A stretch of DNA of 64,000 nt from Planctomycetota bacterium (GTDB lineage: Bacteria > Planctomycetota > UBA8108 > SXIK01), in the NCBI GenBank assembly GCA_965223265.1, contig OZ244999.1, forward strand, positions 1,920,001 to 1,984,000, given 5' to 3'. Within the stretch, counting starts at the first letter, position 1; each line of letters opens with the position of its first letter. Positions 2,750 to 42,265 of the stretch are shown here, piece after piece. The notes under the pieces are model-generated. The model saw only the letters and a list, made by a program, of their open reading frames with translations, had not been told where the DNA came from and did no database searches. Position numbers and translations under genes: made by a program.

Positions 2750-2785
2750 TGGCTGAAGCGCTCTGCGCGCTGTTTTCTCGGGAAG

Positions 2786-7406: not shown

Positions 7407-10400
7407 TCACGCGTCGCACGGCAGGAACGCCTGGCATGTGAGCGTATCTGCCGTGACGTCGAAGTCGCAATTCTCGGCAGGCTGCGGGAGAGGCGAGCCG
7501 CCGGCGAAGAGGCGGAGCAGAATCGTGACGGCGTCGGTGACGGTGATTTTGCCGTCGTCATTGGCGTCCGCGGCTTTAACACAGCTTGGCTCAGTGCCGC
7601 GCCTGAAGAGAAATCCGAGAATTGAAAGCGGGTCCGCGACGTCCAGCTGGGCGTCGGCGTTCGCATCGCCGCGGCGAAATGCGACGTCCCCGCGTGGATC
7701 GATTTCGCCACGCTCGAAACTCGTCACCGACGGCGTGCCGATGACATCAAAGCTCTCGTCGAGATAGAGAACACTTGCCTCCTTGACTACTGGGGGAGGA
7801 CCGCCTTCGAACTCGCGGTCCGGAACCCCAATCTCTATCACTCGGACCGGTTTCTCGAGGCTCGGAAGAACGAGCATCGGCTCTAGCACGACCCAGTACT
7901 TGACCTCGACGTTGTGTCGACGCGCACTGTAGGCAAGACGCCAGTAGTCGGTTTCCGTTCGAACTTCACCTTCCAGCTCGACTCGGGCACGAGTGAGGCT
8001 TGCAGGACCGGTCTCCGTAAGACTCTCCGCCTCGAGGAATCGTTCCTCCAGGTGGATGACCGAACCGTCGTCGAGGCCGATGTCCATAGCGAACAGTGGC
8101 AACAGTTCGTAGCGGCATGAAGAGTAGCTGGCGACAGGCACGTCATTGAGGGAGCCAATCATCGACAGTTCGGACGTGAGGTACTCTTCGTCAAGCGCGC
8201 GCTGTCTCTGGAGTGGGACGCCCCCGCGGCTTTTGAAGTTGACATCGAAAATCTCGAGCTTGAGGGAGTCTCCGTTCGGAAGCACGAACGATTGCTCGAA
8301 ATCGAAGCGGTAGGTGACGTCGCTGCCGGTAGCCCCAAGTCGGCGAACTCGAAACAGGCCGTCGTCGAGTGGATCCGCGAGGAGCTGTTCGGGACCAAAA
8401 CGCACTTCGTCAAAGAGCTCTCCGGAGAAAGAGTCGCTACCGGTTGGTAGTTCCAAAATACCTGGTTTGAACTGAGCAACGCTCTTGAGCTCATACTCGA
8501 CACGCGGGCCGCGGCCGAGTCGCTCTCCGGAGAACACCGCGCAAGCCGAAGTTCCTTCTTCGATCGCTAATTCGAATGTCGGAGACTGGGGTACGGTGCT
8601 CGGCACCAGGAACGGTCGCACCTGTTTTACGGCGAGCGACCCATCACTTTCGATCTTGAACTCAAAATCCAGCAGCACTTCCTCGCGGTCATGGCCTTCG
8701 AGGTCGAGCGGTAGGTTCGCATCGACGTGCGCCATGAGTGCGCCTAACTCTCGCAGCTGATCATCCGTCATCACTGTCTCTCCCGGGGCAACAAGAGAGG
8801 AACTTCGTTCGCGAATGATTCGAGCAACTTGGCCGGACTCGATTTCGAGCAGGTTGCGTTCGACTGTGGTTCCTGGCTCTGGGCTGACGACACTCGCCTC
8901 ACCAACCTGTGCCGTGATCACATAGCGCTTGTCTGCCGTGTTTCGTGGACTACCGGTGAAAGCAACGCCGTTGACCGCTTCGTCAAGGAAGGCGCGGTTG
9001 ACCAGGATTCCCATCGCGATCGAGTCAGCGGGGACCTGAAAGAACGTTCGCTCCTCGTGGGCCCGAAACGTCCACAGACTGGTCCATACCTTCTTCAATG
9101 CCCTCTCGATCGTTCGTTCGTTCGTCCGCTGAGAGTCGCAGTGCGAGCTGTCGGGGCTAGAGGGGTCGATCGTGTCTTCAGCGCAGACGGACGTCGATTC
9201 ATAAAGCCCCGCGCCGCTGAACTCGAGTGTATCTTCGAGGTTCGAAGAAGATCGAAACCTCACCATGGTTCGAGTGCCCCCGAACACTTCTGAGATCCGC
9301 GCGATCAGTTGCGCGACGAGGTCCGGATCCACGATTCCTTCGCTACGAGCGCGATCGCGAAACTGATCGAGCGCTACGAATCGCTGCTCAGAGTCGCTCT
9401 GGAAATCGTCGTTGGCGATCAGCTCTTCGATGTAGTCACGATATGTGACTTCACGACCGTCGACGGTCAGGGTGTTCGCTTCCATGAACTCGAGGTAGTA
9501 GCGAACAGGAATGGCGAAACCGGCTTCCTGGTACTGCACGAACGGACCCGTCAGTTGGCGCTGCAGGCGCGCTAAGTTGGTCGCTTTGCCGCCGAACCTG
9601 GCGACTGGCGTAAACGTTTCGGTGGCGAGTAGATCCATCTCGTGAAATTGGTCGAGGCCGCCGTACGCCACGTCGAGCGTCGGAGTGGTCGGTAGAGACG
9701 GCCGGCTACTACTCCAGAATTCTTGAGCTTCTTCGATCGTTGCCGCGTCTACGAAGTACTGGTCGGCCAAGACCTGCAAGCGGACGAGCTGACCGGCCCA
9801 AGGGGTGAAGGCCTCGCGAGCATCGCGCACGAATGCGTTGGGCGTCCCGCGTCTTGCTGTACGTACGGCGACATGGCTCAAACTGCCTTGGATCGCGCCG
9901 GTGATGACGCCGCCGACGACGCCTTCTATGTCTCGAGGTGCCTCATCCACGACGATCACATCCTGAAACGTCAATCGCCCGCTATCGCTCGCCTCTTCGA
10001 ATTCGGCCAGCGTCAGCAGGCGCACTCGACCGTAGCCAACCGCGATGGTGTACGGCTCATAGTCGATGCCTGGGTCTCCACTCTCGAACAGAATGTCGAA
10101 GGGTGGGTTTGTCCACTCCTCCGCACGTCGGCGTGCGAGGTCGCCCTCGGGTTGGTATACGAGCGGTCGCAGGTCGAACGACTGCTGCAGAGTGTCATAA
10201 ACCGCTTGAACCTCTTCAAGCAGGAGCAGCTCTTGCACATCAAAGCCGGTGTCTGCGACCACTGAAAAGGCGTAGACGATGCCGTTTGGCGTTTCAGTCC
10301 GCAAAATCGCTCCAATGTAATAGTCGCGTGTGGCACGACGTCCGACGAGTGTGTCGAAGAAGTCCCGATCGTCCGGCAGCGTCGGAAACATCTCCGGAAA

Positions 10401-12863
10401 GACGCCCCCCAGAAATTCTTCGTGGAGGCGCCAGCGGTTGATGTTCTGAAAGTGTGTCGGTAGTAGGTTCGGGTCGTCGCGCACTGGGACGATATACTTC
10501 GTCGCACGCAAGGCAGAACCGGATGACTGCAGAGGAAGAGAGATTCGAAAGAAATCCGCCGCGGTGCACACGTCTGTGAGCGCATCGGCTGCGAAGGGCG
10601 CCACGTCCAGGGCATTGCGCACAACCGAGACGGTTCCCGTCAATCGATTCGCGATGGCTAAGTCGATGCTGCCGTTGCCGTCCAGGTCGCCGCTGCTGCC
10701 GAATCGCGGCTCGCTTTCGACTTGGATCTCGATCGGCGCTCCGAAGGTGCGATCTGGTCGTGTGATGAGGAGCGCCACGGTGCCTCCGTTCACGCTCATG
10801 CCGATGACATCGGGGCGTCCATCACCGCTGATGTCATCGGTTACCAAGGAATAGATCGGCAAGCCGTTTGCGGGTGCGTTCGTCTCGTCCCACTGCCCAC
10901 CGCCGTTATTCCACAGCACCGCGATCGAGCGTCCCGATTCGCTTCCCGTGGCAAGATCGACGCGTCCGTCTTGATCGAAGTCATTGGCGACGATGAAATT
11001 CGGGCGCTCCGTGACGAACACGCTAACCGGAGGTCGAAACACTCCCGGCGACGCCTGCTCGAGCAGCGTCACTTCTCCGGATCCGATCCCGGCCGTCGCG
11101 ATGTCCAGGTCTCCGTCGTGATCGAAATCGACGACGACACTGGCGCGAGGGATGCTCCCGACACGCAGCTCCTGTTCGCGAACGAAAGTGCCGTCGCGCT
11201 GATTCCGTAGCACAGTTACCGTGCTCACGGTTGGATTCGATGTTACGAGCTCCGGATATCCGTCGTCGTCGAGGTCGCCGCTCGTGATGTGAAATGCCCC
11301 CGAGCCGACGTCGTAAGTTGGGCCGAGTGCGAATGCACCCTGACCGTCGTTGAGCAGCAGGCCAGCGATGCTGAAACGAGGATCCACCACAGCCATGTCG
11401 AGATCGGAGTCTGCGTCGATGTCCACGAGCCTCAAGTTGAACGACGCCAAGTGGGACTCGACGTGCGTTGGGCCCGTGAACGTACCGTCGCCGTTGTTCA
11501 TGAACACCGAATAACCGACGGGCGAATTCATTCGATTGTTGCCCGTCACGATATCGATGTCACCGTCGCCGTCGAGGTCGCCAGAGCTCTCTGAGTGAGG
11601 GAAACCATCGACGATCAGTCGTTCTGGTGGGTGGAACGGGATGAAGTTCCGCTCCGCGCGCTCGTCGTTCCAGAGAAGCGTGGCTGTCTCGTTCCCAACC
11701 ACCGTGAGCGTTAGCTCTTTGTCACCGTCGCCGTCGAGGTCGAAGGCGCCAGCAGCGGCCGGCCGCCGTCCGAGATTCAGTGCGCTGATATCGAACGTAC
11801 CACTGTCAGTCCCGCGAAACACGACAGTCCCTTGTGGATTGCTCACAACGGCGATCAAATCGCTGTGCCCATCGCCTGCGAGATCTGAAGTCAGCAGCTG
11901 GTCCGGCGCAAAGCTGACGCGAAGCTGACGAGATTCAAGCGCTCCGGTTTGGCTTTGTAACAGGACGTCGATTCCATCGCGGTAGCCGACGGCGAGGTCC
12001 GCACGGCCGTCACCATTGAAGTCTCCAGCCGCCAGGTGTTCAGGCCTTTCCCGATTCAGGGGCAGCCGCTCTGCAACTGCGAAGGCGCCATCGCCATCGC
12101 CGCGTAGTATCGAGAGGTCAGAAGAGTCGCGGTTTGCCGTGACGACATCCAAAGCTCCGTCGCCGTCGAGGTCGGCTACGACAACCGCGGCTGGGTACTC
12201 GCCAACAGCATACTCACGGAGCGACGGCTGCACGCCATTCTCCCCTGTGTGCAAGGCGACCGTGACGTTGTCGCCAACACGGTTGGCGACGACCAGGTCG
12301 CTCGCAGAGTCGTTCGAGAACTGGCCGACGGCGAGCGCCTGCAGTCCGTTCGCCAGCGGCGTGCCTTCCGGCACTGCAAAAGTACCCGCACCATCGCCGT
12401 AGAGGATTACAAAGCGCGAAGGTTGGAGCGCGGCCAAGTCGGAGCTGCCATCGCCGTTGAAGTCGCCGACACACCAAGCCTTGGTACGTCCCTCCAGCAG
12501 AGTCCGCGACGTCGAAAACTGTGTTTCTGGTCCAGATTCAGGGCCTGTCGCGTCCCGGAGGGCTAACGTGACGCCGTCGACGTTTCCTGCCGCAATGTCC
12601 GCCAAACCGTCGCCGTTGAAGTCGGCGCTCGTCACGGAATGGGAGCTCAGTCCGACACCTAGCAGCGTTCGGGTCCGGAGCGCAAGAGGCGCGGCTTCGC
12701 ACTCATCTGGGATGAGGTTGTCATTGCAATCGAGACTTGCACCCGACGCTGTTTCGTCGGCATCTGTCAGGCCGCTGAAATTGCAGTCTGCTGCGTCGAT
12801 GCCACCGCCGAAAAAGAGCACCAACGACGCAGGTAAGAGAAGAAATAGCCCGAAGCGATTCAT
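7407..12863 (-). CDS. Exported FG-GAP repeat protein fused to a PEP-utiliser phospho-His domain, a PPDK-type ATP-grasp domain and a C-terminal dockerin-like domain
   Basis: 1818-aa ORF with signal peptide, DCN..PDEC motif and many D(F/L)(N/D)GDG..D(L/I) repeats. Dikinase motifs: GSLSHVAVRTARRGTPNA, FGGKATNLARL, FRSSSNLED..FSGAGLYES, ALKKVWTSLW, DFEFK..KQVRP. Tail FRRGDANADAQLDVADP..ADANDDGKITVTDA. Confidence 0.85.
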   Translation of the reverse strand: MNRFGLFLLLPASLVLFFGGGIDAADCNFSGLTDADETASGASLDCNDNLIPDECEAAPLALRTRTLLGVGLSSHSVTSADFNGDGLADIAAGNVDGVTLALRDATGPESGPETQFSTSRTLLEGRTKAWCVGDFNGDGSSDLAALQPSRFVILYGDGAGTFAVPEGTPLANGLQALAVGQFSNDSASDLVVANRVGDNVTVALHTGENGVQPSLREYAVGEYPAAVVVADLDGDGALDVVTANRDSSDLSILRGDGDGAFAVAERLPLNRERPEHLAAGDFNGDGRADLAVGYRDGIDVLLQSQTGALESRQLRVSFAPDQLLTSDLAGDGHSDLIAVVSNPQGTVVFRGTDSGTFDISALNLGRRPAAAGAFDLDGDGDKELTLTVVGNETATLLWNDERAERNFIPFHPPERLIVDGFPHSESSGDLDGDGDIDIVTGNNRMNSPVGYSVFMNNGDGTFTGPTHVESHLASFNLRLVDIDADSDLDMAVVDPRFSIAGLLLNDGQGAFALGPTYDVGSGAFHITSGDLDDDGYPELVTSNPTVSTVTVLRNQRDGTFVREQELRVGSIPRASVVVDFDHDGDLDIATAGIGSGEVTLLEQASPGVFRPPVSVFVTERPNFIVANDFDQDGRVDLATGSESGRSIAVLWNNGGGQWDETNAPANGLPIYSLVTDDISGDGRPDVIGMSVNGGTVALLITRPDRTFGAPIEIQVESEPRFGSSGDLDGNGSIDLAIANRLTGTVSVVRNALDVAPFAADALTDVCTAADFFRISLPLQSSGSALRATKYIVPVRDDPNLLPTHFQNINRWRLHEEFLGGVFPEMFPTLPDDRDFFDTLVGRRATRDYYIGAILRTETPNGIVYAFSVVADTGFDVQELLLLEEVQAVYDTLQQSFDLRPLVYQPEGDLARRRAEEWTNPPFDILFESGDPGIDYEPYTIAVGYGRVRLLTLAEFEEASDSGRLTFQDVIVVDEAPRDIEGVVGGVITGAIQGSLSHVAVRTARRGTPNAFVRDAREAFTPWAGQLVRLQVLADQYFVDAATIEEAQEFWSSSRPSLPTTPTLDVAYGGLDQFHEMDLLATETFTPVARFGGKATNLARLQRQLTGPFVQYQEAGFAIPVRYYLEFMEANTLTVDGREVTYRDYIEELIANDDFQSDSEQRFVALDQFRDRARSEGIVDPDLVAQLIARISEVFGGTRTMVRFRSSSNLEDTLEFSGAGLYESTSVCAEDTIDPSSPDSSHCDSQRTNERTIERALKKVWTSLWTFRAHEERTFFQVPADSIAMGILVNRAFLDEAVNGVAFTGSPRNTADKRYVITAQVGEASVVSPEPGTTVERNLLEIESGQVARIIRERSSSLVAPGETVMTDDQLRELGALMAHVDANLPLDLEGHDREEVLLDFEFKIESDGSLAVKQVRPFLVPSTVPQSPTFELAIEEGTSACAVFSGERLGRGPRVEYELKSVAQFKPGILELPTGSDSFSGELFDEVRFGPEQLLADPLDDGLFRVRRLGATGSDVTYRFDFEQSFVLPNGDSLKLEIFDVNFKSRGGVPLQRQRALDEEYLTSELSMIGSLNDVPVASYSSCRYELLPLFAMDIGLDDGSVIHLEERFLEAESLTETGPASLTRARVELEGEVRTETDYWRLAYSARRHNVEVKYWVVLEPMLVLPSLEKPVRVIEIGVPDREFEGGPPPVVKEASVLYLDESFDVIGTPSVTSFERGEIDPRGDVAFRRGDANADAQLDVADPLSILGFLFRRGTEPSCVKAADANDDGKITVTDAVTILLRLFAGGSPLPQPAENCDFDVTADTLTCQAFLPCDA

Positions 12864-15933: not shown

Positions 15934-16303
15934 GGTCCGTTCCCTGTCCGTACAGATGCCTCTTCCGATGTTCGTATCGTTTGGCACGTCTCTTCCTTTC
16001 GCTACTGAGAAGCTTCTTGGTGTACATGATGAGAGCAGCCGCATCAACCGTCACGGTTTAGAGACCGTCGACTTGCGTCCATGCGCGGTTCGCTATGCAG
16101 TGATCGTCAGTCGTACCCCGTGCGAGCGCCGCTCGTACATGACTTGCTCGACACGCGCATAGCAATGAAGACCGTACTGTGGTACGGTGTTGCGACACTT
16201 CACGAACCGTGCGGTTCCGAGATTCCCGTGTGTGTCTACGCGGGCGCACCGTGTTCCGTGCGCATCCGCGTTCATCGTACTCTCCGCGCTGGAGCGACGA
16301 AGG

Positions 16304-18579: not shown

Positions 18580-18642
18580 TGCGCGCCTCGAGCTGCGGGC
18601 GGAGAGTCTTGCACCTGCAGGTTGAAAGTACGGAGTGATCAC

Positions 18643-29095: not shown

Positions 29096-32000
29096 ATGCT
29101 ACGACGATGTCTTCGCTTGGCTGTTGGCCTGACACTCGCGCTGACGGCGCGTGCCGCGGCTCAGGACTGTAACCTCAATGGCGTTGAAGACGCTGTCGAC
29201 GTCGCGCAGATGCTGAGCGCCGACTGTGATGGAGACGGGGTGCCGGACGAGTGTCAGTTGGCGCCGCCAAAGTTCGGTCCGAGCGTCGATGTCTTTGCGA
29301 TCGATGCGAACGCGCGCGGTATCATCAGCGCAGACCTCAACGGCGATGGCATTGCCGACGTCGTGACGGCGCATCAGCAACCTGGCGTCGAGCAGCTATC
29401 GTCGCTCAACGTATTCATCGTGAGTGCGTCTCGTCGTGTCGAGCCGCGCGTTGTGTACGATGCTGGGAGCGAGTTGACGGCAGTCGCCAGAGGCGATGTG
29501 GATGGAGACGGTGACTTCGATCTTGTCACCGCGAATTCGACGACGCTTTCAATCTTTGTCAACCGTGGTGACGGCAGTTTCGAGACCCCGCTGCAAGCGA
29601 GCGTGCCTCGGTTCACGCGGTTTGTCACAGTCGCCGACCTTGATGGCGATGCCCTGCCAGAGCTCATCGCGACGAACACTACGGAAGACACCGTGCTAGT
29701 GCTTGCGAACGAGGGTGGTCATGCCTTCACGGCGCCTTTGGCATACGCGGCGGGCGACAGTCCGTCGTCAGCGGCCGTCGGTGACATCAACGGCGATGGC
29801 CACCAAGATGTCGTCGTCGCGAATCGTCTCTCGAAAGATTTGACGATTTTTTTCGGTCGCGGCGACGGCGAGTTGGACGATTGGGGGGACATCGATCTAG
29901 GCGAGCGCCCGGCGACGATCACCGTGGCGGACTTCGATCGTGATGGCGCGGGCGAGGTGATGGTCGGCCTGACAGCTGTCGTTCTCTCACTGGCTTACCA
30001 GGAAGGTGAGTTCGTCGAGACGCGTCGGGTCCACCTGCGCACCCGATCGCTCGACTCGGGTGACGTAGATAGAGACGGCGACATCGACATCGTCGCGGGG
30101 ACGGCGGAAGGGCGTGGGGTTCACCTTTTGCTCAACGACGGCAGCGGAGGTTTTGGCGAAGTCCGTGTCACGAGCTCAGAGTTTTTCCATCTCGTGAGCG
30201 ACGATTTTGACGGCGATCGAGACCTCGACATCGCGCTGATCGAAGTGAATCTCGGTGAGCTCGATTTTCTCTGGAACGAGGAGCGAGGCGTCGCGTTTGA
30301 CTCGACGATTATTCGCACCTTACGCGAGGTGCATTATGCCTCCGTGGCGGACGTCGACGGAGACGGTCGCCTTGACGTCGTCACCGTGGATGGTCTGGAC
30401 AGCACGATTTCCGTCTTGGCGGGGCGCGGTGACGGTAGCTTCCGCGATCCGGTTCAATTCCCACTGGGAGCAGGAGGCCACTGGTTTTCCCTAGCGCTCG
30501 ATGACTTCAACCGTGACGGTGCTCCGGACATCGTCGCGGGCAATGCACGTAACGAGAACCTCTCGGTCCTGATCAATCAGGGCGCGGGCGAATTCTCGCG
30601 CCTCGATCTCTATCGCGCGACCGCGAATCCGTACTGGGTGGAGACCGGCGACTTCGACGCCGACGGCTTTCCTGATATCGCCGCCTCGTCGAGCCTGGGC
30701 GGCGCTGTCAGCGTTCTGCGCAATCGTGGCGACGGGACGTTTGAAGCGCGCCGAGACTTCGACGGCGGACGACCCGGAGGCTTTGGCATTTCGGTCGCTG
30801 ATCTCGACGGTGATGGTCACGTGGATATCGTGCGCCCCAGTTCCGGCAGTGGTGACCTGTCGATCCTCTACGGGCGCGGCAACATGGAATTTGATCCCCG
30901 TGCTTCCGTTCCGGCGGTGAGTAGCGTGTTTACGGTGCGAGCTGCGGACGTGGATGCTGACGGGCGACTCGACCTGCTCGTAGGTGAGGTCTCGTCTGTG
31001 TCTGTTCGGCGCAATCTTGGCGATCGAACCTTTGCGCCTGAAGAGCGATACAGTTTGCCGGGTAATCCGTACTCGATCTGGGTAGGGGATCTCGACCGTG
31101 ACGGTGTGGAGGATTTGGCCATTGCGCTCGCGCAGGTCGACGCGATTAGCATGCTACTCGGCGAGGGTGGTGGAAGGTTCTCCGTCGCGCTGACGTTCAG
31201 TGTGCGAGGGCTGCCGCGCACTGCGATTCCGGTCGATCTTGACACTGACGGCGACCTCGATTTGGTGTCGTCGAATCGTATCGACGAGTCAGTGGCGATC
31301 CTGCTCAACCAAACCGCCGTGCCCGGTGGGCAGGTCACGCACGTTGAGCAGGTCTGTACCGAGCTAGGGTTCGTGGCGGTCTCCGCCCCATCGCCGATCG
31401 AGCGCGTCGCACGGGCGACCAAGTACGTCGTTCCGGCACGCAGCGATGCCACCTTGTTGCCGCCGCTCGTAATGAACGTACAGCGCTTTCCCTTGCACCA
31501 GGAGTTTCTCACGCAGGTCTTTCCTGACCGCTTCGTCAGCTTGAACCCGGCAGAATATAGCGCCCTGGTGGCCCGCCGAGCGTCACGCGATTACTACGTC
31601 GGCGTCATCAGCCGATTGCGCGCCCCCGAGTCAGGCGCGGGGCGCATCTTCGGCTTCAATGTATTCGCCGACCTGACGGACCCTGCCGAGCTCCTGACGG
31701 AGACCGAGGTGCGGAGCGTCTACGACGAACTGCAGAGCGTTTTTGAGCTGGAGACGCTCGCCTACGCGCCCGACGCTCCCGCAGCGCGAGATGTCGCGGC
31801 AACGTGGCAGGATCCTGGCTTTCCGGTCATTCTCGATACCGGTCCCGTCGTACGCTATGAACCGTACACGCGGGCGGTTGGTTTCGGTCGCGTTCGCCTG
31901 CTGACGCGAGAGGAGTTCGACGTAGCCGATCGGAGCGGTCAATTTAGTTTCCAGAACATTCTTGTTCTCGATTTTGCGCCGAGCGACATCGAGGGCGTTG

Positions 32001-34510
32001 TCGGCGGTGTCGTCACTGCGCAGCCACAGGTGCCTCTGAGTCATCTGTCGATCCGAACCGCGCGACGTGGGGCGCCGAATGCCTTCGTTGCCGACGCCTT
32101 GTCCGAGTTCGCGCCGCATGCCGGACAGCTGGTGAGGTTGGAAGTGCGTTCCGATGACTATGACGTACGACCGGCGACGCTCGAAGAGGCCGAGACGTTT
32201 TGGCGCGAGAGTCGCCCGAGTCTCTCCGCGCCGCCGCAGCTCGATTTCGAGTTCGCTGCCCTGCCGGCGTTTGAAGAGATCTCTATGCTCGAGATGGGGG
32301 CGCCCGGTGTCGCACGCTTTGGCGGCAAGGCGACCAACCTCGCGCGCCTCCAGGAGATCTTGGACGGACCATGGAGTCAGTACCGGGAGAAGGGATTCGC
32401 GGTGCCGATTCGTTACTACTTCGACTTTCTGCGGTCGAACCGAATGTCGTCCGCACTCGATGCGGCGCGGCAGGTGACCTACGAGGAGTACCTCAGCGAG
32501 CTCTTTGCCAGTGCCGCCTTCCAAAGCGATTCGGAGTTTCGATTCCAAACTCTCGACGCGCTGCGCGATCAGATGCGTGACGAGGGGCAAGTCGATCCCG
32601 CGCTGATCGAAGCCATTGGTGCTCGCGTTGGCGAAATCTTCGGTACGCCCTCGACGACGCGCGTGCGATTTCGCTCTTCGTCAAACGTCGAGGACGACAT
32701 CCAGTTCAACGGTGCGGGGCTCTACGATTCAACCTCCGGCTGCCCTCAAGACGATTTTGACGCCGATACTGTTGGACCCTCGCACTGCGATCCGACGCGC
32801 GAGAACGAGCGAGGGATCTCGCGCGCGCTGAAGCGTGTCTGGTCGAGCTTGTGGAACTTTCGCGCCTACGAAGAGCGCGAGTTCTTTCAGGTGCCGCACG
32901 ATTTGACAGCTATGGGGGTGCTCGTCAATCGGACGTTCATCGACGAAGCCGCGCAGGGCGTTGCATTCACTGGGAATCCGTCAAACGTGCGCGACCGGCG
33001 TTACACTATCACCGTTCAGCTGGGAGAGGAGAGCGTCGTCAGTCCTGAACCGGGAGTTCTCGCCGAGCGCAACCTTCTCGAGGTCGTCGACGGCGAAGTC
33101 GTCGGAATCACTCGGGCGACGCGCTCAACGCTGACTGCTCCAGGAGAGTTCGTACTCAGTGAGGAACAGCTGCGTGAGCTTGGCGCGCTTATGGCACACA
33201 TCGACGCGAACTTTCCGCTAGAAACGGGCGAGTTCGACCGTGAGCAGGTCCTCCTCGACATGGAGTTCAAGTTCATGCGCGACGGTGAGCTGGCAGTGAA
33301 ACAAGTGCGACCGTTTCTGCTCACGGAGGCGCCGCCTCCGGCGCCAACGTTCGAGCTTGAAATCCCCGCAGCTCAAGAGATGTGCGGGGTCTTCGCGCTC
33401 TCGGGCGCTGCTCGGGGGCCGCGCGAGGAGTATGAGCTGAAGGCACGTGTCGAACTTCGAAGCGGCGTGCATGAGCTCCCGACACTGACGGAGACGTTCA
33501 CGCTCGATCTCATCGAGACGGTATGGTTTGGTCCAGACAAGGAGTTGGCCGTACCGGTTGGCAGCGGCCACGTGGGCGTTAGCTCCTTTTCAGGGGCGAG
33601 CGGGGAGACCAATTATCGTTTCACTTATTTCCAGGCGTTCGTGCTAACCGACGAGAGGATCTTGGAGATCGAATTCGGCCAGCCGCTTTCGTTCCAAGCC
33701 GAGGGCGACCAGCCGATTGAGCGTCGGAGACGGCTCGGCGAGGAGTTTTTCACGGTTCGCTCCGGCTTCGAGCCGTTCCATGCGTCGCTGGGGGGTGTTG
33801 CTTCGGTCCGATTCGGATCTTGTAGCCATGAGCTCTTGCCGCTTTTCGCCATCGATGCAGAGCTCGAGGACGGGACCAGTCTGCACTTTGAGGAGCGTTT
33901 CGAGGCGGCGGTCAGTCTCTTTGACACGGGTCCCGCTAGTTTGGTCCGCGCCGAGGTCACGGCGGGTGCGGAGCGTCGTATCGTGCGGGAGTATGAGCGT
34001 CTCGTCTACTCCGCGTTTCGGCACAACACGTTCGTTGTCTACTGGGCCGTTCTCGACCCACCCCTCACGATCGATGGCGTCACTCGTCCGGTCCGCGCCA
34101 TCGAGTTTGCTTTGCCGGAACCGACTCAGCAGTCGCCGGCACGAGCTGCGTATCTCGACGAGGACTTTGCCGTCATCACATCGCCGAGTGTCAGGTCTCT
34201 GTCGCTCCGCACCGCGGTTGACGAACGCCTGCGACCGTTTCGTCGTGGCGACGTCAACGACGACGCGACCCTCGACGTCGCAGATGCGCTCTCTCTTCTC
34301 AACTATATCTTCCGCCGCGGTGGGGAACCGAGTTGCGTGCTCGCGGCCGACGTCGACGACGATGACCGCATCGTCGTATCCGACGCGGTCGGGATTTTGC
34401 GGCATCTCTTTGTGGGCAGTGGTCCGTTGCCCGCGCCGTTCGCGAGCTGCGGCGTTGACCCGAGCCCGGGCCGGCTGACTTGTGGAGATGCGGCGGCGTG
34501 TGATGGTTGA
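29096..34510 (+). CDS. Exported FG-GAP repeat / phospho-His / ATP-grasp dikinase / dockerin-like protein, paralogue of 7407-12863
   Basis: 1804 aa with signal peptide ending AAA-Q, DCN..PDEC motif and FG-GAP repeats. VPLSHLSIRTARRGAPNA, FGGKATNLARL, FRSSSNVED..FNGAGLYDS, ALKRVWSSLW, DMEFK..KQVRP. Tail FRRGDVNDDATLDVADA. Confidence 0.85.
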   Translation: MLRRCLRLAVGLTLALTARAAAQDCNLNGVEDAVDVAQMLSADCDGDGVPDECQLAPPKFGPSVDVFAIDANARGIISADLNGDGIADVVTAHQQPGVEQLSSLNVFIVSASRRVEPRVVYDAGSELTAVARGDVDGDGDFDLVTANSTTLSIFVNRGDGSFETPLQASVPRFTRFVTVADLDGDALPELIATNTTEDTVLVLANEGGHAFTAPLAYAAGDSPSSAAVGDINGDGHQDVVVANRLSKDLTIFFGRGDGELDDWGDIDLGERPATITVADFDRDGAGEVMVGLTAVVLSLAYQEGEFVETRRVHLRTRSLDSGDVDRDGDIDIVAGTAEGRGVHLLLNDGSGGFGEVRVTSSEFFHLVSDDFDGDRDLDIALIEVNLGELDFLWNEERGVAFDSTIIRTLREVHYASVADVDGDGRLDVVTVDGLDSTISVLAGRGDGSFRDPVQFPLGAGGHWFSLALDDFNRDGAPDIVAGNARNENLSVLINQGAGEFSRLDLYRATANPYWVETGDFDADGFPDIAASSSLGGAVSVLRNRGDGTFEARRDFDGGRPGGFGISVADLDGDGHVDIVRPSSGSGDLSILYGRGNMEFDPRASVPAVSSVFTVRAADVDADGRLDLLVGEVSSVSVRRNLGDRTFAPEERYSLPGNPYSIWVGDLDRDGVEDLAIALAQVDAISMLLGEGGGRFSVALTFSVRGLPRTAIPVDLDTDGDLDLVSSNRIDESVAILLNQTAVPGGQVTHVEQVCTELGFVAVSAPSPIERVARATKYVVPARSDATLLPPLVMNVQRFPLHQEFLTQVFPDRFVSLNPAEYSALVARRASRDYYVGVISRLRAPESGAGRIFGFNVFADLTDPAELLTETEVRSVYDELQSVFELETLAYAPDAPAARDVAATWQDPGFPVILDTGPVVRYEPYTRAVGFGRVRLLTREEFDVADRSGQFSFQNILVLDFAPSDIEGVVGGVVTAQPQVPLSHLSIRTARRGAPNAFVADALSEFAPHAGQLVRLEVRSDDYDVRPATLEEAETFWRESRPSLSAPPQLDFEFAALPAFEEISMLEMGAPGVARFGGKATNLARLQEILDGPWSQYREKGFAVPIRYYFDFLRSNRMSSALDAARQVTYEEYLSELFASAAFQSDSEFRFQTLDALRDQMRDEGQVDPALIEAIGARVGEIFGTPSTTRVRFRSSSNVEDDIQFNGAGLYDSTSGCPQDDFDADTVGPSHCDPTRENERGISRALKRVWSSLWNFRAYEEREFFQVPHDLTAMGVLVNRTFIDEAAQGVAFTGNPSNVRDRRYTITVQLGEESVVSPEPGVLAERNLLEVVDGEVVGITRATRSTLTAPGEFVLSEEQLRELGALMAHIDANFPLETGEFDREQVLLDMEFKFMRDGELAVKQVRPFLLTEAPPPAPTFELEIPAAQEMCGVFALSGAARGPREEYELKARVELRSGVHELPTLTETFTLDLIETVWFGPDKELAVPVGSGHVGVSSFSGASGETNYRFTYFQAFVLTDERILEIEFGQPLSFQAEGDQPIERRRRLGEEFFTVRSGFEPFHASLGGVASVRFGSCSHELLPLFAIDAELEDGTSLHFEERFEAAVSLFDTGPASLVRAEVTAGAERRIVREYERLVYSAFRHNTFVVYWAVLDPPLTIDGVTRPVRAIEFALPEPTQQSPARAAYLDEDFAVITSPSVRSLSLRTAVDERLRPFRRGDVNDDATLDVADALSLLNYIFRRGGEPSCVLAADVDDDDRIVVSDAVGILRHLFVGSGPLPAPFASCGVDPSPGRLTCGDAAACDG

Positions 34511-34901
34511 GGGGAGCACGCCGTGCCGTCATTGTTTGGATTTCGGAACGTGATGCACGCTGGCGCGAGCGACCCCATCCGAGGCACCAGGCGGGCACGT
34601 CGGCCGAGACGGGCTGCTAAGCTAAGATCTGTCACAGCTCGTGCACGCTGTCGACGGAGGCACCTGGCTTCCCAGGTGATCATTTTGTTCCTTTTTTGAG
34701 GTCTGGAGGTTTTCCTTCGTTCTATCTGGGTTTGGGACCTGTCGCACAGAGTCCTCTGGCACCGGCGCCGTCGCCTGAGTCGAGGCGGCTCAGTCGCCGG
34801 GTTCCCGAGAGCGGGTGCGTTTCTTGCGCGGCCGTCAAAGAGAGCAGACAATACAGTCGAAACTGCGTGGTCGAGACCTTACCTGGAAGGAGATGTGAGC
34901 G

Positions 34902-36155
34902 ATGAGAAAGTTCCTCGCGTGCGTCGTCGCGAGCGTGCTGGTTGGGGCGACCGCGATGTTGGGCGTCTTGGCCCAGACGAGCGACCCCCTCCTCGATATC
35001 CCCAACGCCGACATCGACGGCGCCTTTCTTGCCGCCGGGAGTACGGTGATTCACTTGGAGAATGCAGACTCGCGCGCGGGGGTGACGTGGGACGGCGTCC
35101 CCGAGACTCTGGGTGACGGTGTTTACGACGCCGAGGAATTCGCAGTCGTCTTCAAGTACAGCTCCGTCGATATCCCCGCTGGAACCTCCGTAGCGTTCAC
35201 GAATCATCCGACGCGAGCTCCGGTCGTCTGGCTGGTCTCAGGAGACGTGACGATCGATGGCACGCTGGATCTGAGCGGTGCTTCACACGACGCGGGCACC
35301 CTGTTCGCTGTTCCCGGGCCGGGTGGCTTTCGCGGTGGCTCGTCCGGGAGTCGAGGTAGCGCTGGCTTCGGGCCAGGCGGTAGTTTGTCGTTCTCCGGCG
35401 ACGACGAGAATCTCGTCAAGAGCGGTGGCAGTTACGCCACGCCCGGAGGTGGCGACGACGCCGGACCGACGTACGGCAATGCGGAACTCATTCCGCTCCT
35501 TGGAGGCTCCGGTGGCGCGGGATTCCGCTCCGGCGGTACTCTCGGCGGCGCTGGTGGCGGCGCGATTCTTATCATCGCCGAGAACATCATCGTGAACGGA
35601 ACGATCGTCGCTGACGGCGGCGATCACGGTCAGACCAGTAGCGGCGGCAGCGGTGGTGCGATTCGCCTCGTCGCCAGAAACGTTGGCGGCACGGGCATGC
35701 TGCTGGCGCGGGGTGGGGGAATCAGTCCGCCCGGGCAGCGAGGTGGCGACGGCCGGATTCGTATCGAGTCGGAGTCCGCCATCGATGCCTCGCTCGAAGC
35801 CGCTCCAGCCGCATCGACAGGCACCCCGAGCGACCCCGTCACGATCTTCCCCGGCCCTACGGAGCCGACCGTACGCATCGTCTCGATCGGAGGCGTCGCC
35901 GCTCCGAGCGACCCACAGGCGAACCTGTCGCATAGCGCTGACGTCGAGCTCTCCACTTCCGACCCAGTCGACATTGTGATCGATACCGGCGTCGAGGTCG
36001 ATCCGGCGACGATTGTCGAGGTGCGGATCACGCCCCGCGAGGGAGCTGTGCTCACGGCGCTGGCGAGCCACACGATCGGCACGACTTGGACCGCTTCCGG
36101 TGTCGTTTTGCCGCAGACGGTTTCGGCGCTACAGGTCTTGGTCGACACGCCTTGA
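34902..36155 (+). CDS. Secreted glycine-rich hypothetical protein
   Basis: GGAGA RBS and signal peptide, then PGPGGFRGG, GGSGGAG, GGAGGGAILI, GGSGGAIRL, GGDGRIRIE. First gene of an apparent operon with the CARDB gene. Confidence 0.7.
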   Translation: MRKFLACVVASVLVGATAMLGVLAQTSDPLLDIPNADIDGAFLAAGSTVIHLENADSRAGVTWDGVPETLGDGVYDAEEFAVVFKYSSVDIPAGTSVAFTNHPTRAPVVWLVSGDVTIDGTLDLSGASHDAGTLFAVPGPGGFRGGSSGSRGSAGFGPGGSLSFSGDDENLVKSGGSYATPGGGDDAGPTYGNAELIPLLGGSGGAGFRSGGTLGGAGGGAILIIAENIIVNGTIVADGGDHGQTSSGGSGGAIRLVARNVGGTGMLLARGGGISPPGQRGGDGRIRIESESAIDASLEAAPAASTGTPSDPVTIFPGPTEPTVRIVSIGGVAAPSDPQANLSHSADVELSTSDPVDIVIDTGVEVDPATIVEVRITPREGAVLTALASHTIGTTWTASGVVLPQTVSALQVLVDTP

Positions 36156-36176
36156 CGCGTGCGCTGGAGTCATGTG

Positions 36177-38633
36177 ATGGATCCCGCCCGCCGTCGTGTG
36201 TTGGTGTTCGCTCTGCTTGCTGCCTTTGCCTCCAGAGCAGACGCACAGATTTCGATCTCCACAGCCGATGTCGTCTCGCGAGAGGTGACGGTGTTCGTGC
36301 CGCCGCCGCGCCCTGCGTACGACCTTGCGTCGCGACCGATGGTTGTTGCTGCCGGTCCGACGATCGCTACCGAGCGGCGTTCCTTCGCCTCGCGCGAGCT
36401 CAGCGTCGACGTACCGCTCGGCGATCTCGTCATCTCCAGCGTCGACGTGCCGGCGTCGGGGGTCGCTGGGAAGTCGTTTGAATTCCGCTGGCGGGTGGAA
36501 AACGCCGGGGGCGGAGCGCTGGACGGGCCGTGGGTCGACCGCATCACGATCACTCCGGAAACTCCGCCGGGCCCGGAGACCGTCCTCGCCGACATCGAAC
36601 ATCCGTTCCTTGCTTCGGCAGGCGGGCCCTGTGATGAAGACGAAGAGCCTTGCGGCGTCTACGAGAAGATCGAATCGTTGACGTTGCCGGCGACACCCGG
36701 GACTTTTCGCATCCAGCTCGCGGCCGATGCTGACGGCGCTGTCGTCGAGGGTGATGAGACGAACAACGTTGTGGAGCGTACGATCCAGGTACGCCCAGCG
36801 TTTCTTGCCGACCTCGACGTGACACTGATCACGGCTCCGGGTGGTGGGGCGGACGTTTTCGCGGGCAGCATGGTGGCGGTGACCTACGAGGTGATGAATG
36901 CGGGAGACTGGCCGACAGAAGTTCCGTTCTGGCAGGACAGCTTTTTTCTCACCGCGGCCGATGACGCGCTCGCTCCTTTCCTCGCCGATGAACCCTTCTT
37001 TCTCGGACAGTTCGGCAACGCGACATTTCTGCCCGCAGGCGCGAGCTACCGGGAGACAGTGCTGGTGCAGTTGCCTGACGACATCGAAGGCACCTTCTTC
37101 GTCGCAGTCTACCCGGACAGCCGGCGGCTTGCGCCCGCAGCGTGGCGTCGTGGTGCAGACTTCGACATCCCCGAGAGCGATGAGGAGAACGTGGAGTTCA
37201 GTGCCCCGTTCGCGATTGCCGCACCGCCGCAGCCAGATCTCGTCGCCACCGAGGTCGACTTCTTCTCGCCGGCGTTTTCGGGGAACGAGTTCACGGTGAC
37301 GTGGACCGTCGAGAATCGCGGCGGTGCCGACACCGACTCGGGAATTTGGGTTGATGCCGTTTACCTATCGGACGACGACGATCCGATCATCCATTGCGAC
37401 GATTTGCTCCTCGGCACACAGCGACGTAGTGGCGCTGTACTCGCACCGGGTGCGAACGACGAGACGCGAAGCTACACGGCTCGCCTGCCCGATGATCTGC
37501 GCGGTCACTTTTTCGTCAAAGTGTTCACCGACGCGCCCGTGCCGCTCAATTGTGATCAAATCGGCGGATCGCCTGGAAGCATCACCGAGTTTCGCCTCGA
37601 GGGCAACAACGTCGGGGTCAGCAGTGACAAGGCCGCGTGTGTCGCGCTGTGCGATCTGGACCCGACGAGCCTCGAGTGCATGAGCTGCGGCCGCCTTGAG
37701 GTGCGGCTCAGCCCGGCTGTCGATCTCAAGCCGGTCAGCGCCCAAGTTGTCCCGGAGCGCGGTATCCCCGGGCACGTGCTCGAAGTCACCTGGACGGTGG
37801 AGAACATCAATGCACCTTTTCGTGCTGACGCGGCGTGGCAAGACGAGGTGTATCTCTCAAGCGATGATGTGTACGACCCAGGTCTCGACACGTTTTTGGG
37901 TCGCCGTACGGCTTGGTCTTCGCTGCTCGATAGCGACGAAGCGCCGCCACAGTACACACTCAGCCGGTCGGTCGTCCTGCCTCCAGCGACAGCGTCGGGG
38001 CCTTGGTGGATGGTCGTCGTCGTTGATGCAGGCGGTGCGGGCAGCGTCTTCGAGGGTTTTGACGAAGCGCCCGGAGACGAGACGCGCAAGGAGAATAACA
38101 ACGTCGCCAGTGTTTCGTTTGTCGTCGACCAAATGCCGACCGATCTTTCCGTTGAGGTCAATTGCGACACCTGCCCACAAGTGTCGCCATCGGGCGCGGC
38201 CTTTGACTCGATCACTCTCGCCTGGAGAGTCACCAACAGTGGCGTCCAAGAAACACCGGTGTCGCATTGGCGCGATCGCGTCTACCTCTCGAACGATAGC
38301 GTGCTCGAGGAGGACAGCGACCTCGTTCTGACCGAGTTTGTGCGCAGCGAGCCCATGCCTCTCGCGGCTGGATCCAGCTACACAGCGGAGGTGAACGCGT
38401 CTGTCCCCGCTCTGGCGCCAGGAAGCTATTTTTTGATCTTCGTGACCGACGCGCGGGGCGATGTGTTCGAGGCGGCGCCAGGCGAAGAGAACAACACGGT
38501 CGCGTTATCATTCGAGGTCGACGCGGCGGGTGTCGATCTTGTGGTCGATCAGCTCGACTTCAACGACAACGCATCTTCGGGGAAGCCCGTGCAGATCTCC
38601 TGGCGCGTCACGAACACAGGAACCGTGCGGTGA
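36177..38633 (+). CDS. CARDB (Ig-like) repeat surface protein, N-terminal part (frameshifted relative to 38630-42265)
   Basis: Signal peptide and repeats of DL.V..W.V.N.G..W.D.VYLS.D..E..E.NN. The ORF stops in the middle of a repeat (ISWRVTNTGTVR*). Confidence 0.8.
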   Translation: MDPARRRVLVFALLAAFASRADAQISISTADVVSREVTVFVPPPRPAYDLASRPMVVAAGPTIATERRSFASRELSVDVPLGDLVISSVDVPASGVAGKSFEFRWRVENAGGGALDGPWVDRITITPETPPGPETVLADIEHPFLASAGGPCDEDEEPCGVYEKIESLTLPATPGTFRIQLAADADGAVVEGDETNNVVERTIQVRPAFLADLDVTLITAPGGGADVFAGSMVAVTYEVMNAGDWPTEVPFWQDSFFLTAADDALAPFLADEPFFLGQFGNATFLPAGASYRETVLVQLPDDIEGTFFVAVYPDSRRLAPAAWRRGADFDIPESDEENVEFSAPFAIAAPPQPDLVATEVDFFSPAFSGNEFTVTWTVENRGGADTDSGIWVDAVYLSDDDDPIIHCDDLLLGTQRRSGAVLAPGANDETRSYTARLPDDLRGHFFVKVFTDAPVPLNCDQIGGSPGSITEFRLEGNNVGVSSDKAACVALCDLDPTSLECMSCGRLEVRLSPAVDLKPVSAQVVPERGIPGHVLEVTWTVENINAPFRADAAWQDEVYLSSDDVYDPGLDTFLGRRTAWSSLLDSDEAPPQYTLSRSVVLPPATASGPWWMVVVVDAGGAGSVFEGFDEAPGDETRKENNNVASVSFVVDQMPTDLSVEVNCDTCPQVSPSGAAFDSITLAWRVTNSGVQETPVSHWRDRVYLSNDSVLEEDSDLVLTEFVRSEPMPLAAGSSYTAEVNASVPALAPGSYFLIFVTDARGDVFEAAPGEENNTVALSFEVDAAGVDLVVDQLDFNDNASSGKPVQISWRVTNTGTVR

Positions 38634-41600: not shown

Positions 41601-42265
41601 TCGAGAACAACGCACGGATCCGCTTCGACATCAATGCTCCTCTCGACACGGGAACGGTTCTCAACACGATTGACGCAGACGCACCGCAAAGTCACGTCGA
41701 GCCGCTCGCCGAGATTCAATCTCAGCCGACGTTTCCTCTGAGCTGGTCTGGTGCCGATGTCGACGGCGGATCCGGGCTCGCGGCCTTTACAATCTTCGTT
41801 GCGGTCGACGATGGTCCCTTCGCACCGCTCGTCAGCGACACCACCGCGTCGCAGCTTGTTTTCACGGGCGAGCCAGGGCGACGCTATAAGTTTTACAGTC
41901 GCGCTCGTGACAACGCGGGTAACGTCGAGGCGGCACCCGAAGTGGCAGAAGCGACAACAACGGTCTCCGCTCCGGACGCACGGTTCCGACGCGGCGACGC
42001 CAACAGCGACGCGAGCCTCGATATCTCGGATCCGATCTTCATCCTATTGTGGCTTTTCGTCAGTGGTGAAGAACCAACGTGCCTCGATGCGGCAGACGCC
42101 AACGACGATGGCAGTGTCGACATCGCCGATCCGATCTACTCGCTCAACTTTCAGTTCGTCAGCGGTGAAGCGATTCCACTGCCTGGCGAACTCACTTGCG
42201 GCCTCGATCCAACGCCTGACCCGTTCGTGGCCTGCGTCTATGCGGCCGGGCTGTGCGACCTCTGA
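38630..42265 (+). CDS. CARDB repeat surface protein, C-terminal part, with PPC/IPT-like domains, a DPNEK domain and a dockerin-like tail
   Basis: Starts in the middle of a CARDB repeat (APSFRDRVYLS) with no signal peptide. SVDPNEKTG..Y.V.FQN, YKFYSRARDNAGNVE, tail FRRGDANSDASLDISDP. Confidence 0.8.
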   Translation: MTAPSFRDRVYLSADDRIEGGDFLLGSWIHDGALAAGASAPVSASFHLPLGLSGCFQVIVQTDAGDDVFETDEANNERAEMMLLEVELSPLSNLVVTSVNADAQATSGQTLTVAWTVLNSGPGPTNSSTWRDVVYLSRDGFLDRQRDLVIGFRDRGCPDPECVGGQGFLFAGESYNVQATFDVPLGASGPYFAFVVTDSSDRILERDEDDNQKRDLDVVDIAVPPLANLVVAAVNPPPTATLGEVARIEWQLQTTSTESVSGRWSDSLFLSSDAVWDLGDAFFGRFEVDPQTLPEGAIFAASGEAAIPAVLPGDYHVIARADVFNQIPEIDESDNETASVGTLSIAALGFDVDAASGEGSIQSTLEAGGERYFEMRVPPALAGQTLRVRLEHDSDAAWTELYVSFASVPTPGRFDLRFDHPAQRFQEVTIPAVDAGSYFVLARAIESGGQLLPDGVNISAQVVPFAVDTATPMRFGDQGRVTVEVTGSQFEDGVSAALVAVDDAERRLPARWTRVVDSTRLHAKFVLDPVNVTRGAYRLTVTHPSGESDELENVTIEAVVPPSLEVLVADPPPLREGAAGNVDCVVTNAGNVDAEYVFLFHVMEAVDDRDVLRVVASSPFTSSVAEDEVLVQSAVIPSLPPGKSARLTSTVRVAVGSTDIALGQGAAVFSTVEFLETQAAAAAAARDAVREDATVVDETDRQQTLGEAENTATWRTAWLTQLEASGLVDAEDALAFLGGADLVVAPKPPQRRHCFPTSTAELMPPLCDELAGHLCGAWLGHSLTLGAEARGVFALELFGVRVGPSDVDPAIGLTCTSTGSLCASCISWSVLRSVDPNEKTGTDGFGDDRFVPLERPIAYRVYFQNLPDATGPASAVEILDPLDPSLNPGSVRLGSISFGDQVVDVPADSLTFQTELDLTLERGVFLEITAGVDATRGELLWLMRSVDPSTGEAPTDATLGFLPPDDASGQGSGWVEYTALPRPGVIALTVVENNARIRFDINAPLDTGTVLNTIDADAPQSHVEPLAEIQSQPTFPLSWSGADVDGGSGLAAFTIFVAVDDGPFAPLVSDTTASQLVFTGEPGRRYKFYSRARDNAGNVEAAPEVAEATTTVSAPDARFRRGDANSDASLDISDPIFILLWLFVSGEEPTCLDAADANDDGSVDIADPIYSLNFQFVSGEAIPLPGELTCGLDPTPDPFVACVYAAGLCDL

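Follow-up and report, generated by a model that had tools for sequence, protein, structure and literature searches.

The gene at positions 29,096 to 34,510 of a 64,000-nucleotide stretch of Planctomycetota DNA (GenBank assembly GCA_965223265.1, contig OZ244999.1, positions 1,920,001 to 1,984,000 of the forward strand; this whole stretch is called the window throughout) codes for a protein, P0001, in which a predicted signal peptide, a Cys-rich motif and a long FG-GAP/VCBS repeat module are followed by a putative catalytic core and a dockerin-like tail (Table 1). The core comprises a domain that we term N-sub, a putative phosphohistidine domain of the swivel type (the His domain), a PPDK_N ATP-grasp domain and a further C-terminal globular region (the C-domain). 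A paralogue, P0002, is encoded in the same window. Judged by their sequences, these two proteins belong to a large extracytoplasmic group that is new within an established enzyme superfamily and combines its domains in a new way. On balance we consider it probable that P0001 is an exported, and probably surface-tethered, enzyme of the His-swivel dikinase superfamily with the mechanism that we propose below. Swivelling-phosphohistidine dikinases are known as cytoplasmic or plastidial enzymes, and no description of an FG-GAP- or dockerin-containing dikinase family was found in the literature, in a search that left preprint supplements aside.

Two window copies with a conserved core and a divergent propeller

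An earlier note on this DNA, made from the sequence alone, had claimed a second copy of the gene about 16 kb away on the opposite strand, and had placed the candidate catalytic His of P0001 at 32042-32044. The open reading frames (ORFs) bear this out: the genes for P0001 and P0002 lie 16.2 kb apart on opposite strands, codon 32042-32044 is CAT and encodes His983 in the context PLSHLSIRTA, and this residue aligns with His997 of P0002 (9873-9875, minus strand). In both proteins Pfam places the FG-GAP module first and PPDK_N later, and both share the signal peptide, the Cys motif and the dockerin-like tail.

The two proteins are 41% identical overall (BLASTP), and their divergence is not uniform: identity is 30% in the propeller (200/665), 52% in residues 766-1040 (142/272), 59% in the ATP-grasp domain (217/365), 43% in the C-domain (122/286) and 53% in the tail (55/103). 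All four motif blocks that the note quoted are present in both proteins in the BLASTP alignment; its mention of long, nearly identical blocks was, however, overstated, as the identical runs measure only 7-15 aa, the longest, of 15 aa, lying around the GGK motif. It was right that the FG-GAP halves share mostly the repeat consensus: Asp, Gly and Asn make up 48.5% of the identical propeller positions as against 28% of the propeller composition. The comparison of nonsynonymous and synonymous divergence (dN/dS) that it suggested is uninformative as a ratio, because synonymous sites are saturated between the two genes (proportion of synonymous differences, pS, 0.68-0.77), but dN by itself is higher in the propeller (0.81) than in the His and ATP-grasp domains (0.31-0.34). 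No conversion tract was found between the two window genes, the best DNA match being 66 nt at 79%, and no upstream motif is common to them.

An expanded family within one genome

At least 31 family proteins are labelled with the same 9,179,496-bp contig as the two proteins of the window, and the expanded family that the earlier note had supposed from two copies is thus considerably larger. A search with the P0001 core (residues 766-1700) recovered 26 same-contig copies among the best 120 of 272 proteins, and one with the P0002 core five further copies among the best 120 of 227. All 31 are 1779-1847 aa long with a uniform layout, and their genes together would make up about 1.8% of the 9.18-Mb genome (31 x 5.4 kb); of 527 shorter relatives, the best 120 included no short form from this contig. 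Over the 465 pairs of paralogues the mean identity is 0.31 in the propeller (range 0.25-0.67), 0.46 in N-sub, 0.58 in the His domain, 0.60 in the ATP-grasp domain, 0.41 in the C-domain and 0.49 in the tail, and in every single pair (465/465) conservation is higher in the core than in the propeller. H801, H983, K1078, R1193, E1199, D1200, E1390, Q1403 and R1405 are retained in 31/31. Hence the constant core and the variable propeller of the earlier note are well supported, the 'recognition' function that it assigned to the latter remaining a putative one.

In a tree of 181 cores built with quick settings, 30 of the same-contig copies fall into 15 separate same-genome clades, which are interspersed with sequences of other origin; P0001 stands by itself and P0002 clusters with P0198 and P0225. 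Furthermore, for 7/26 same-contig copies the nearest core comes from another source. By this phylogenetic picture, therefore, the family is old and has undergone recent local expansion.

A subset of the paralogues is mosaic. In seven pairs, which form three groups ({P0005, P0158, P0160}, {P0185, P0187, P0026} and {P0237, P0063}), the His and ATP-grasp domains are 98-100% identical and the propellers just 33-41%. Identity rises from about 0.3-0.5 to 1.0 between residues 726 and 793 (P0001 numbering), this first breakpoint being the junction right after the conserved Cys754; in P0005 versus P0160 it drops again near residue 1437, at the border of the C-domain, and the longest identical run in such pairs reaches 728 aa. 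The propellers behind the identical cores are as distant from each other as from any other propeller, which indicates that the identical cores reflect recombination, either by gene conversion or by module exchange. We also considered duplication with runaway divergence of the propellers, and ruled it out on the same ground, the propellers being no closer than those of any other pair. The mosaic pairs involve other paralogues and not the two window genes. They offer a clean natural case of the concerted evolution of one domain beside the free divergence of another.

The catalytic core

The ATP-grasp domain is the part of the core that is readily placed. PPDK_N (PF01326) is matched in P0001 with E 4.5e-16 (59.5 bits, residues 1074-1407) and in P0002 with E 1.8e-17 (64 bits, residues 1089-1420) against a cut-off of 27 bits, and is present in 45/45 family members. 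Among PDB chains, the family profile matches only the ATP-grasp of phosphoenolpyruvate (PEP) synthases and rifampin phosphotransferases (RPH): the best match is 8a8e (E 6e-15), and the RPH chains 5hv1 and 5fbs follow with E ~1e-6. The GGK, RSS..ED and terminal E...Q-x-R motifs align with those of the PEP synthase and RPH domains, and the ATP/Mg residues that they contain (Lys of GGK, Arg of RSS, ED, Glu and Gln-x-Arg) form invariant columns in the core alignment and are kept in 31/31 paralogues. In addition, the domain holds a family-specific loop with Cys1216 and Cys1231.

The His domain is more divergent. Its sole Pfam signal is a weak match to GWD1_pHisD (PF22973), seen in 17/45 members with a best E of 0.009 (P0001: E 0.074) and below the cut-off in all of them. 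A profile of 54 His-domain sequences aligned with the isolated phosphohistidine domain of pyruvate, phosphate dikinase (PPDK; 2fm4_A) has DIEG and SH in register, at an E of 1.4 that is not significant. The His983 column, however, shows no variation in 54/54 sequences from several phyla, in 45/45 family members and in 31/31 paralogues; loss of the His and of the ATP-binding residues, which the earlier note had named as the outcome that would speak against a catalytic family, is not what the family displays. Taken together, the ATP-grasp residues and the invariant His make a complete catalytic set at the level of sequence.

N-sub and the C-domain are families without assignment. In an alignment of 34 sequences N-sub has invariant H36 (= H801), R66, G71, F89 and F144. 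Residues 766-1046 (281 aa) yield in Pfam the weak PF22973 match inside the His domain and nothing in N-sub. Against PDB at E<=10, the sole match of the N-sub profile was the NADPH oxidase 2cdu_A (whole-sequence E 0.005, per-stretch E 2 and 140), which we take as chance in view of the per-stretch values; no chain with the all-helical central domain of glucan, water dikinase (GWD), which has 444 aa as against the 155 aa of N-sub, was found. The C-domain has no Pfam and no PDB match, and is unrelated to N-sub by hhalign.

Neither the TIM barrel that binds PEP or pyruvate nor a PEP-utilizers match was found by Pfam. The NCBIfam equivalog models of PEP synthase give 17-36 bits against cut-offs of 598-883, and the RPH model (RIF_Ptrans_rph, NF041857) 16 bits against 999. 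Because the barrel is lacking and these curated models are so far below their cut-offs, P0001 is, on sequence criteria, not a PEP synthase, PPDK or RPH. The 'dikinase' of the earlier note hence stands as far as PPDK_N and the invariant His are concerned, but not in the sense of PEP synthase or PPDK, since there is no barrel and the domains are arranged as in GWD. No carbohydrate-binding module of the CBM45 or CBM20 families was found by Pfam either, the N-terminal module being FG-GAP.

Location outside the cytoplasm

Everything points to a protein that works outside the cytoplasm: the signal peptide, twelve conserved cysteines, Ca-binding FG-GAP blades and the dockerin-like tail. A comparable leader precedes the Cys motif in all 31 paralogues, and among 87 complete short forms of the family a hydrophobic leader is seen in 78 and a lipobox-like site in 53. 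Twelve Cys columns are kept in 26/26 copies, among which the columns of the N-terminal Cys motif are also invariant in a 12-sequence alignment of the N-terminal module; the cysteines of the ATP-grasp loop, 1216 and 1231, are found in 45/45 and 44/45 family members. FG-GAP_3 is matched with E 8e-74 in P0001 and 1e-58 in P0002, along with FG-GAP in both, and the P0001 module contains 14 DxDxDG-like Ca-binding sites at a spacing of about 49 aa; its 14 blades would correspond to two seven-bladed propellers.

The P0001 tail matches Dockerin_1 (PF00404) with 24.6 bits against a cut-off of 22.9 when scanned alone and with only 17.4 bits in the full-length scan; that of P0002 is 52% identical to it. 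Another protein of the window, a VWA+HYR protein of 1258 aa (52103-55879, plus strand), has this dockerin-like double Ca-binding segment with its Cys tail at the C-terminus (tail 55517-55876, 37% identical to the P0001 tail). For this reason the tail looks like an anchoring tag shared by otherwise unrelated exported proteins, and P0001 is probably tethered to the cell surface.

The wider family

Searched against 1.84 billion representative sequences, the core gave 2673 matches at E<=1e-3 and 984 clusters at E<=1e-30, so that the family amounts to about a thousand clusters at 50% identity. A pattern scan of species-representative genomes confirmed at least 567 stretches (575 tested), from which 79 loci were kept; the genome of the window is not among them. 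These loci come from Planctomycetota (up to four per assembly), Verrucomicrobiales, Omnitrophota, Myxococcota, Sumerlaeia and Kiritimatiellae, and a cultured carrier, Paraliomyxa miuraensis (Myxococcota), has a short form. The Myxococcota forms, of about 690-790 aa, consist of a leader and core residues 1-643 only.

Among 181 proteins with a whole core, 37 have the start of the core within residues 0-99, 13 within 300-599 and 127 within 700-899, as if propellers had been added in units. Other N-terminal domains do occur on the same core in other organisms, as the earlier note had anticipated: two Lcl_C domains are found in 7 of 22 relatives scanned for fusion partners, and further modules on the core are CHAT, a lamin-tail domain (LTD), CHB_HEX_C with beta-helix and Fn3, fn3 with Calx-beta, and TSP3; another relative carries a C-terminal BNR module with a dockerin. 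All of these fusion partners (Lcl_C, LTD, CHAT, CHB_HEX_C with beta-helix, fn3, Calx-beta, BNR and TSP3) are of the surface type. Three giant relatives, P0115 (3336 aa), P0118 (6419 aa) and P0149 (3227 aa, with two PPDK_N stretches), have the core set among beta-helix, Fn3, LTD, Calx-beta and TSP3 modules. The one mention found in the literature is the listing of PPDK_N as a frequent domain of Omnitrophota giant proteins (10.1101/2023.11.21.568195).

The sources name family members 'VCBS/FG-GAP repeat-containing', 'PEP/pyruvate-binding domain-containing', 'hypothetical' or, by automatic labelling of short forms, 'pyruvate, water dikinase'. The short members bearing the last label in one source (P0285, P0297, P0301, P0304, P0307, P0308, P0348 and P0373) contain PPDK_N alone and lack a PEP/pyruvate-binding domain; the label is probably a misannotation. 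One stored homologue in the Protein Atlas falls with 'PEP synthase family' clusters at a score of 0.82, which is a lead at most.

A proposed mechanism and its alternatives

The chemistry that we propose is modelled on that of RPH and GWD. The ATP-grasp domain would bind Mg-ATP; His983 would attack the beta-phosphate, the gamma-phosphate would be lost to water and AMP released. The His domain would then pivot to the adjoining N-sub domain and hand its phosphate to a hydroxyl of the acceptor, the net reaction being acceptor + ATP + H2O -> acceptor-phosphate + AMP + Pi. N-sub is a candidate for the acceptor site because it stands directly before the His domain, as in the GWD layout, and has the invariant His801. 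Meanwhile, the double propeller, or other surface modules elsewhere in the family, would hold the enzyme on a particular target and the dockerin-like tail would tie it to the cell surface. As acceptor we favour an extracellular polymer, most likely a glycan, a guess prompted by the GWD-like layout and by the fusion partners (the hexosaminidase C-terminal domain, beta-helix, BNR and Lcl_C); the phosphorylation might serve the loosening or marking of the polymer, by analogy with that of starch. The genome would keep its at least 31 versions with the propellers diverging freely and recombination keeping or redistributing one catalytic cassette.

Several points weigh against this proposal. The serious one is the supply of ATP, as we know of no extracytoplasmic source of it for these organisms. 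Released extracellular ATP is reported, and a periplasmic ATP-dependent ligase, Lig E, is said to exist; both are precedents and not evidence. A related two-component dikinase is able to transfer phosphate from one substrate to another without ATP (PMC12167813), but in this family the ATP site is intact, which speaks for the use of ATP. The glycan acceptor draws on analogy and fusion partners only, the 155-aa N-sub is far smaller than the GWD central domain and is unaccompanied by CBM45 or CBM20, and in the 79 loci there is no conserved neighbour that would indicate a substrate. The His domain stays under the threshold of every Pfam model, PF00391 being matched in 0/45 members and PF22973 never above its cut-off. 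Finally, the count of 31 paralogues derives from the shared contig label and not from the genome sequence.

Different roles for the same architecture have to be weighed against such an enzyme. It could be a small-molecule phosphotransferase at the surface or in the periplasm, which inactivates or captures antibiotics, phenolics or compounds of that sort and for which the propeller is a mere anchor. Apart from PEP synthase and PPDK, the characterised bacterial enzymes with a PPDK_N-type ATP-grasp and a swivelling His all act on small hydroxylated molecules (PMC4844700, PMC12167813, PMC13553574), the ATP-grasp profile does reach the two RPH structures, and the minimal unit of the family, core residues 1-643, needs no targeting module. 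We nevertheless hold this to be unlikely: RPH has the opposite domain order and its curated model remains far out of reach, a region like the rifampin-binding domain was not detected, the need for ATP outside the cytoplasm would apply equally, and 31 divergent propellers of 700 aa are hard to explain as plain anchors. A role as an effector or toxin delivered into other cells, with the propeller as the receptor-binding part, the core as the active part and a shuffling of the two like that of bacteriocins, would solve the ATP requirement inside the target cells; it would also suit the mosaic modules with their sharp breakpoints at domain borders and the presence of the family in the predatory lineages Myxococcota and Omnitrophota. 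It appears improbable given that no conserved immunity-like gene is adjacent (the 417-aa ORF downstream of P0001 has no relative in the 79 loci), that no translocation or known toxin-delivery domain and no PADLOC match was found, that 31 copies of one 'toxic' core would be unusual, and that the polarity is the reverse of that of polymorphic toxins, in which the N-terminus is constant and the C-terminus variable.

Alternatively, P0001 may be a non-catalytic adhesin or sensor, whose dikinase-like part only binds a nucleotide, for instance as a sensor of extracellular ATP, or is a structural relic. Bacteria reportedly sense extracellular ATP, several adhesin-type modules are fused to the core, and activity has so far been demonstrated for no member. 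Yet the His, Lys, Arg and Mg ligands are invariant both in the 31 paralogues and across phyla, and the core, with the dN given above, is the slowest-evolving part of the protein; we regard this reading as very improbable. Least credible of all is an ordinary metabolic PEP synthase (pyruvate, water dikinase) or PPDK, to which the presence of PPDK_N and the automatic label of the short forms might lead: with its signal peptide, extracellular modules and reversed domain order, and with neither a barrel nor a PEP-utilizers match nor an NCBIfam score near the cut-offs, P0001 hardly qualifies, and we exclude this identity on account of the missing third domain.

Returning to the exported dikinase-type enzyme, a more far-reaching version can be put forward tentatively, which we regard as possible but doubtful: P0001 would be the dikinase superfamily's first extracellular representative. 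Tethered to the surface, it would use ATP, or a phosphoryl donor not recognised so far, to phosphorylate exopolymers that are insoluble or gel-like and thereby loosen, mark or capture them. Each of the 31 or more propellers would direct the cassette to its own target, and recombination at the domain junctions would re-pair the modules. If true, it would be a bacterial counterpart, outside the cell, of the starch phosphorylation by GWD, and extracellular polymer phosphorylation would be a new step in glycan turnover. If the enzymes are active, then either ATP is used outside the cytoplasm in Planctomycetota, Verrucomicrobiota, Omnitrophota and Myxococcota, or there is a donor that nobody has considered; either outcome would change views of surface chemistry and polymer degradation in these groups. 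Such enzymes could also serve as tools for the phosphorylation of polysaccharides, a goal that GWD research itself names.

Features of the window and gene neighbourhoods

Table 1. Coordinates of P0001, its domains and its paralogue in the window.
Feature	Position	Strand	Description	Basis
Whole gene (P0001)	29096..34510	+	1804 aa, stop TGA	ORF list and translation
Paralogue (P0002)	7407..12863	-	1818 aa, stop TGA, matching architecture	
Sec-type signal peptide	29096..29161	+	about residues 1-22; positive start, hydrophobic stretch, ARA/AAQ	read from the translation, without a predictor
Cys-rich acidic N-terminal motif	29165..29260	+	residues 24-55; C25, C44, C53	
FG-GAP/VCBS repeat module	29276..31330	+	residues 61-745, about 14 blades	Pfam
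N-sub domain	31391..31855	+	residues 766-920, 155 aa; family without assignment; invariant His801	
Putative phosphohistidine (swivel-type) domain	31856..32233	+	residues 921-1046; putative catalytic His983 at 32042-32044	
PPDK_N ATP-grasp nucleotide-binding domain	32315..33316	+	residues 1074-1407	Pfam PF01326
C-domain	33326..34195	+	residues 1411-1700, 290 aa; family without assignment; missing from short forms	
Dockerin-like double Ca-binding segment and Cys tail	34247..34507	+	residues 1718-1764; C1747, C1785, C1796, C1802	

The neighbours of P0001 in the window are typical of Planctomycetota (DUF1501, PSCyt2/PSD1) and suggest no functional link to it; across the 79 loci, neighbours are shared only among closely related ones. 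No Rfam family or tRNA was found in the window, no sigma-70-like promoter near the P0001 gene, and PADLOC returned no matches. A third FG-GAP protein, P0003 (2-1765, minus strand; 588 aa seen, cut by the window edge), is 27% identical to the P0001 propeller and has no Cys-rich N-terminal motif; it is probably of a different FG-GAP family rather than a further paralogue.

Between the two paralogues lies an ergothioneine set (14956-19995): egtD (14956-16047, minus strand; TIGR03438, 376 bits) and egtB (18622-19995, plus strand; TIGR03440, 575 bits), which enclose an ABC importer made of a ProV-like ATPase and a fused OpuAC binding domain-permease; the arrangement suggests a locus for the synthesis and uptake of ergothioneine or betaine. 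A protein with TPR and AhpC/TSA (thiol-disulfide oxidoreductase-like) domains is encoded 1.9 kb upstream of P0001 (24840-27227, minus strand), and in locus L004 the gene directly upstream of the family member likewise codes for a TPR + AhpC/TSA protein (2128-3399, plus strand). ORFs at the matching upstream position cluster together in six related Planctomycetota loci (including L001, L004, L008 and L009), that of L004 being the one scanned. This neighbourhood may be due to chance, or may be related to the twelve conserved cysteines. Downstream of P0001, the 417-aa ORF (34902-36155) has no assigned family, and the 391-nt gap before it contains a terminator-like hairpin (34661-34678); after it come two large CARDB-domain proteins (824 and 1211 aa; 36159-42265, plus strand) with a stop/start overlap at 38630-38633.

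In other genomes, a Cys-rich lipoprotein of about 400 aa without an assigned family is encoded beside the short Myxococcota forms in five loci (L050 7935-9143, L060 4476-5687, L071 4437-5684, L059 and L077), and a protein of 371 aa whose sequence resembles an outer-membrane beta-barrel (porin-like) in three (L037 8140-9255, L041 and L044); neither is general to the family. In L037 a CotH-type kinase (9266-10537) is found two genes downstream.

Comparison with known systems

P0001 resembles GWD most in its layout: targeting modules are followed by a domain before the His domain, the His domain itself and the ATP domain (PMC13553574). In StGWD1, two CBM45 precede a central domain (483-926), the His domain (931-1050, with His992) and the ATP domain (1069-1387), and the His domain swings from the ATP site to the central domain and back (PMC13553574); even the residue numbers of the last two domains are nearly equal to those of P0001 (921-1046 and 1074-1407). 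Both are large enzymes that are, or in the case of P0001 would be, aimed at a target through separate binding modules. Unlike GWD1 and phosphoglucan, water dikinase (EC 2.7.9.4 / 2.7.9.5), P0001 has neither CBM45 nor CBM20, and in place of the all-helical central domain it has N-sub, with no match between the two in the PDB sequence search. Moreover, in contrast to the plastidial GWD, it is predicted to be exported and possesses the additional 290-aa C-domain and the dockerin-like tail. By every curated cut-off the similarity to GWD is too weak for placement in that family.

With RPH and related small-molecule dikinases (the Bacillus phenolic phosphate synthetase, HpeHI and PigC/RedH), P0001 would share the pairing of an ATP-grasp with a swivelling phosphohistidine domain, the former being detectable by profile. 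The RPH-type reaction converts ATP to AMP, Pi and a phosphorylated hydroxyl, and the order of domains is ATP-grasp first, then the substrate domain and the His domain last (PMC4844700); this order is the reverse of that in P0001, the enzymes of the group are cytoplasmic, and their NCBIfam models are far below cut-off. PEP synthase and PPDK provide the best sequence matches of the ATP-grasp (8a8e) and, at the non-significant level noted for 2fm4, the DIEG and SH in register; P0001 differs from them in lacking the barrel, in the inverted order of the His and ATP domains and in its predicted export.

A non-cellulosomal surface assembly of dockerins and cohesins, the 'planctosome', has been proposed for freshwater Planctomycetes (PMC6461901). 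P0001 is similar in being an exported planctomycete protein that ends in a dockerin-like module, and LTD and HYR, which are named in that model, occur respectively on family members elsewhere and on the window neighbour with the same tail. None of the window ORFs scanned yielded a cohesin, and the 'planctosome' model concerns peptidases, unlike the enzyme considered here. Lastly, P0001 and its paralogues differ from polymorphic toxins and bacteriocins in what is kept and what is exchanged: here it is the N-terminal propeller that varies and the putative enzymatic part that is constant.

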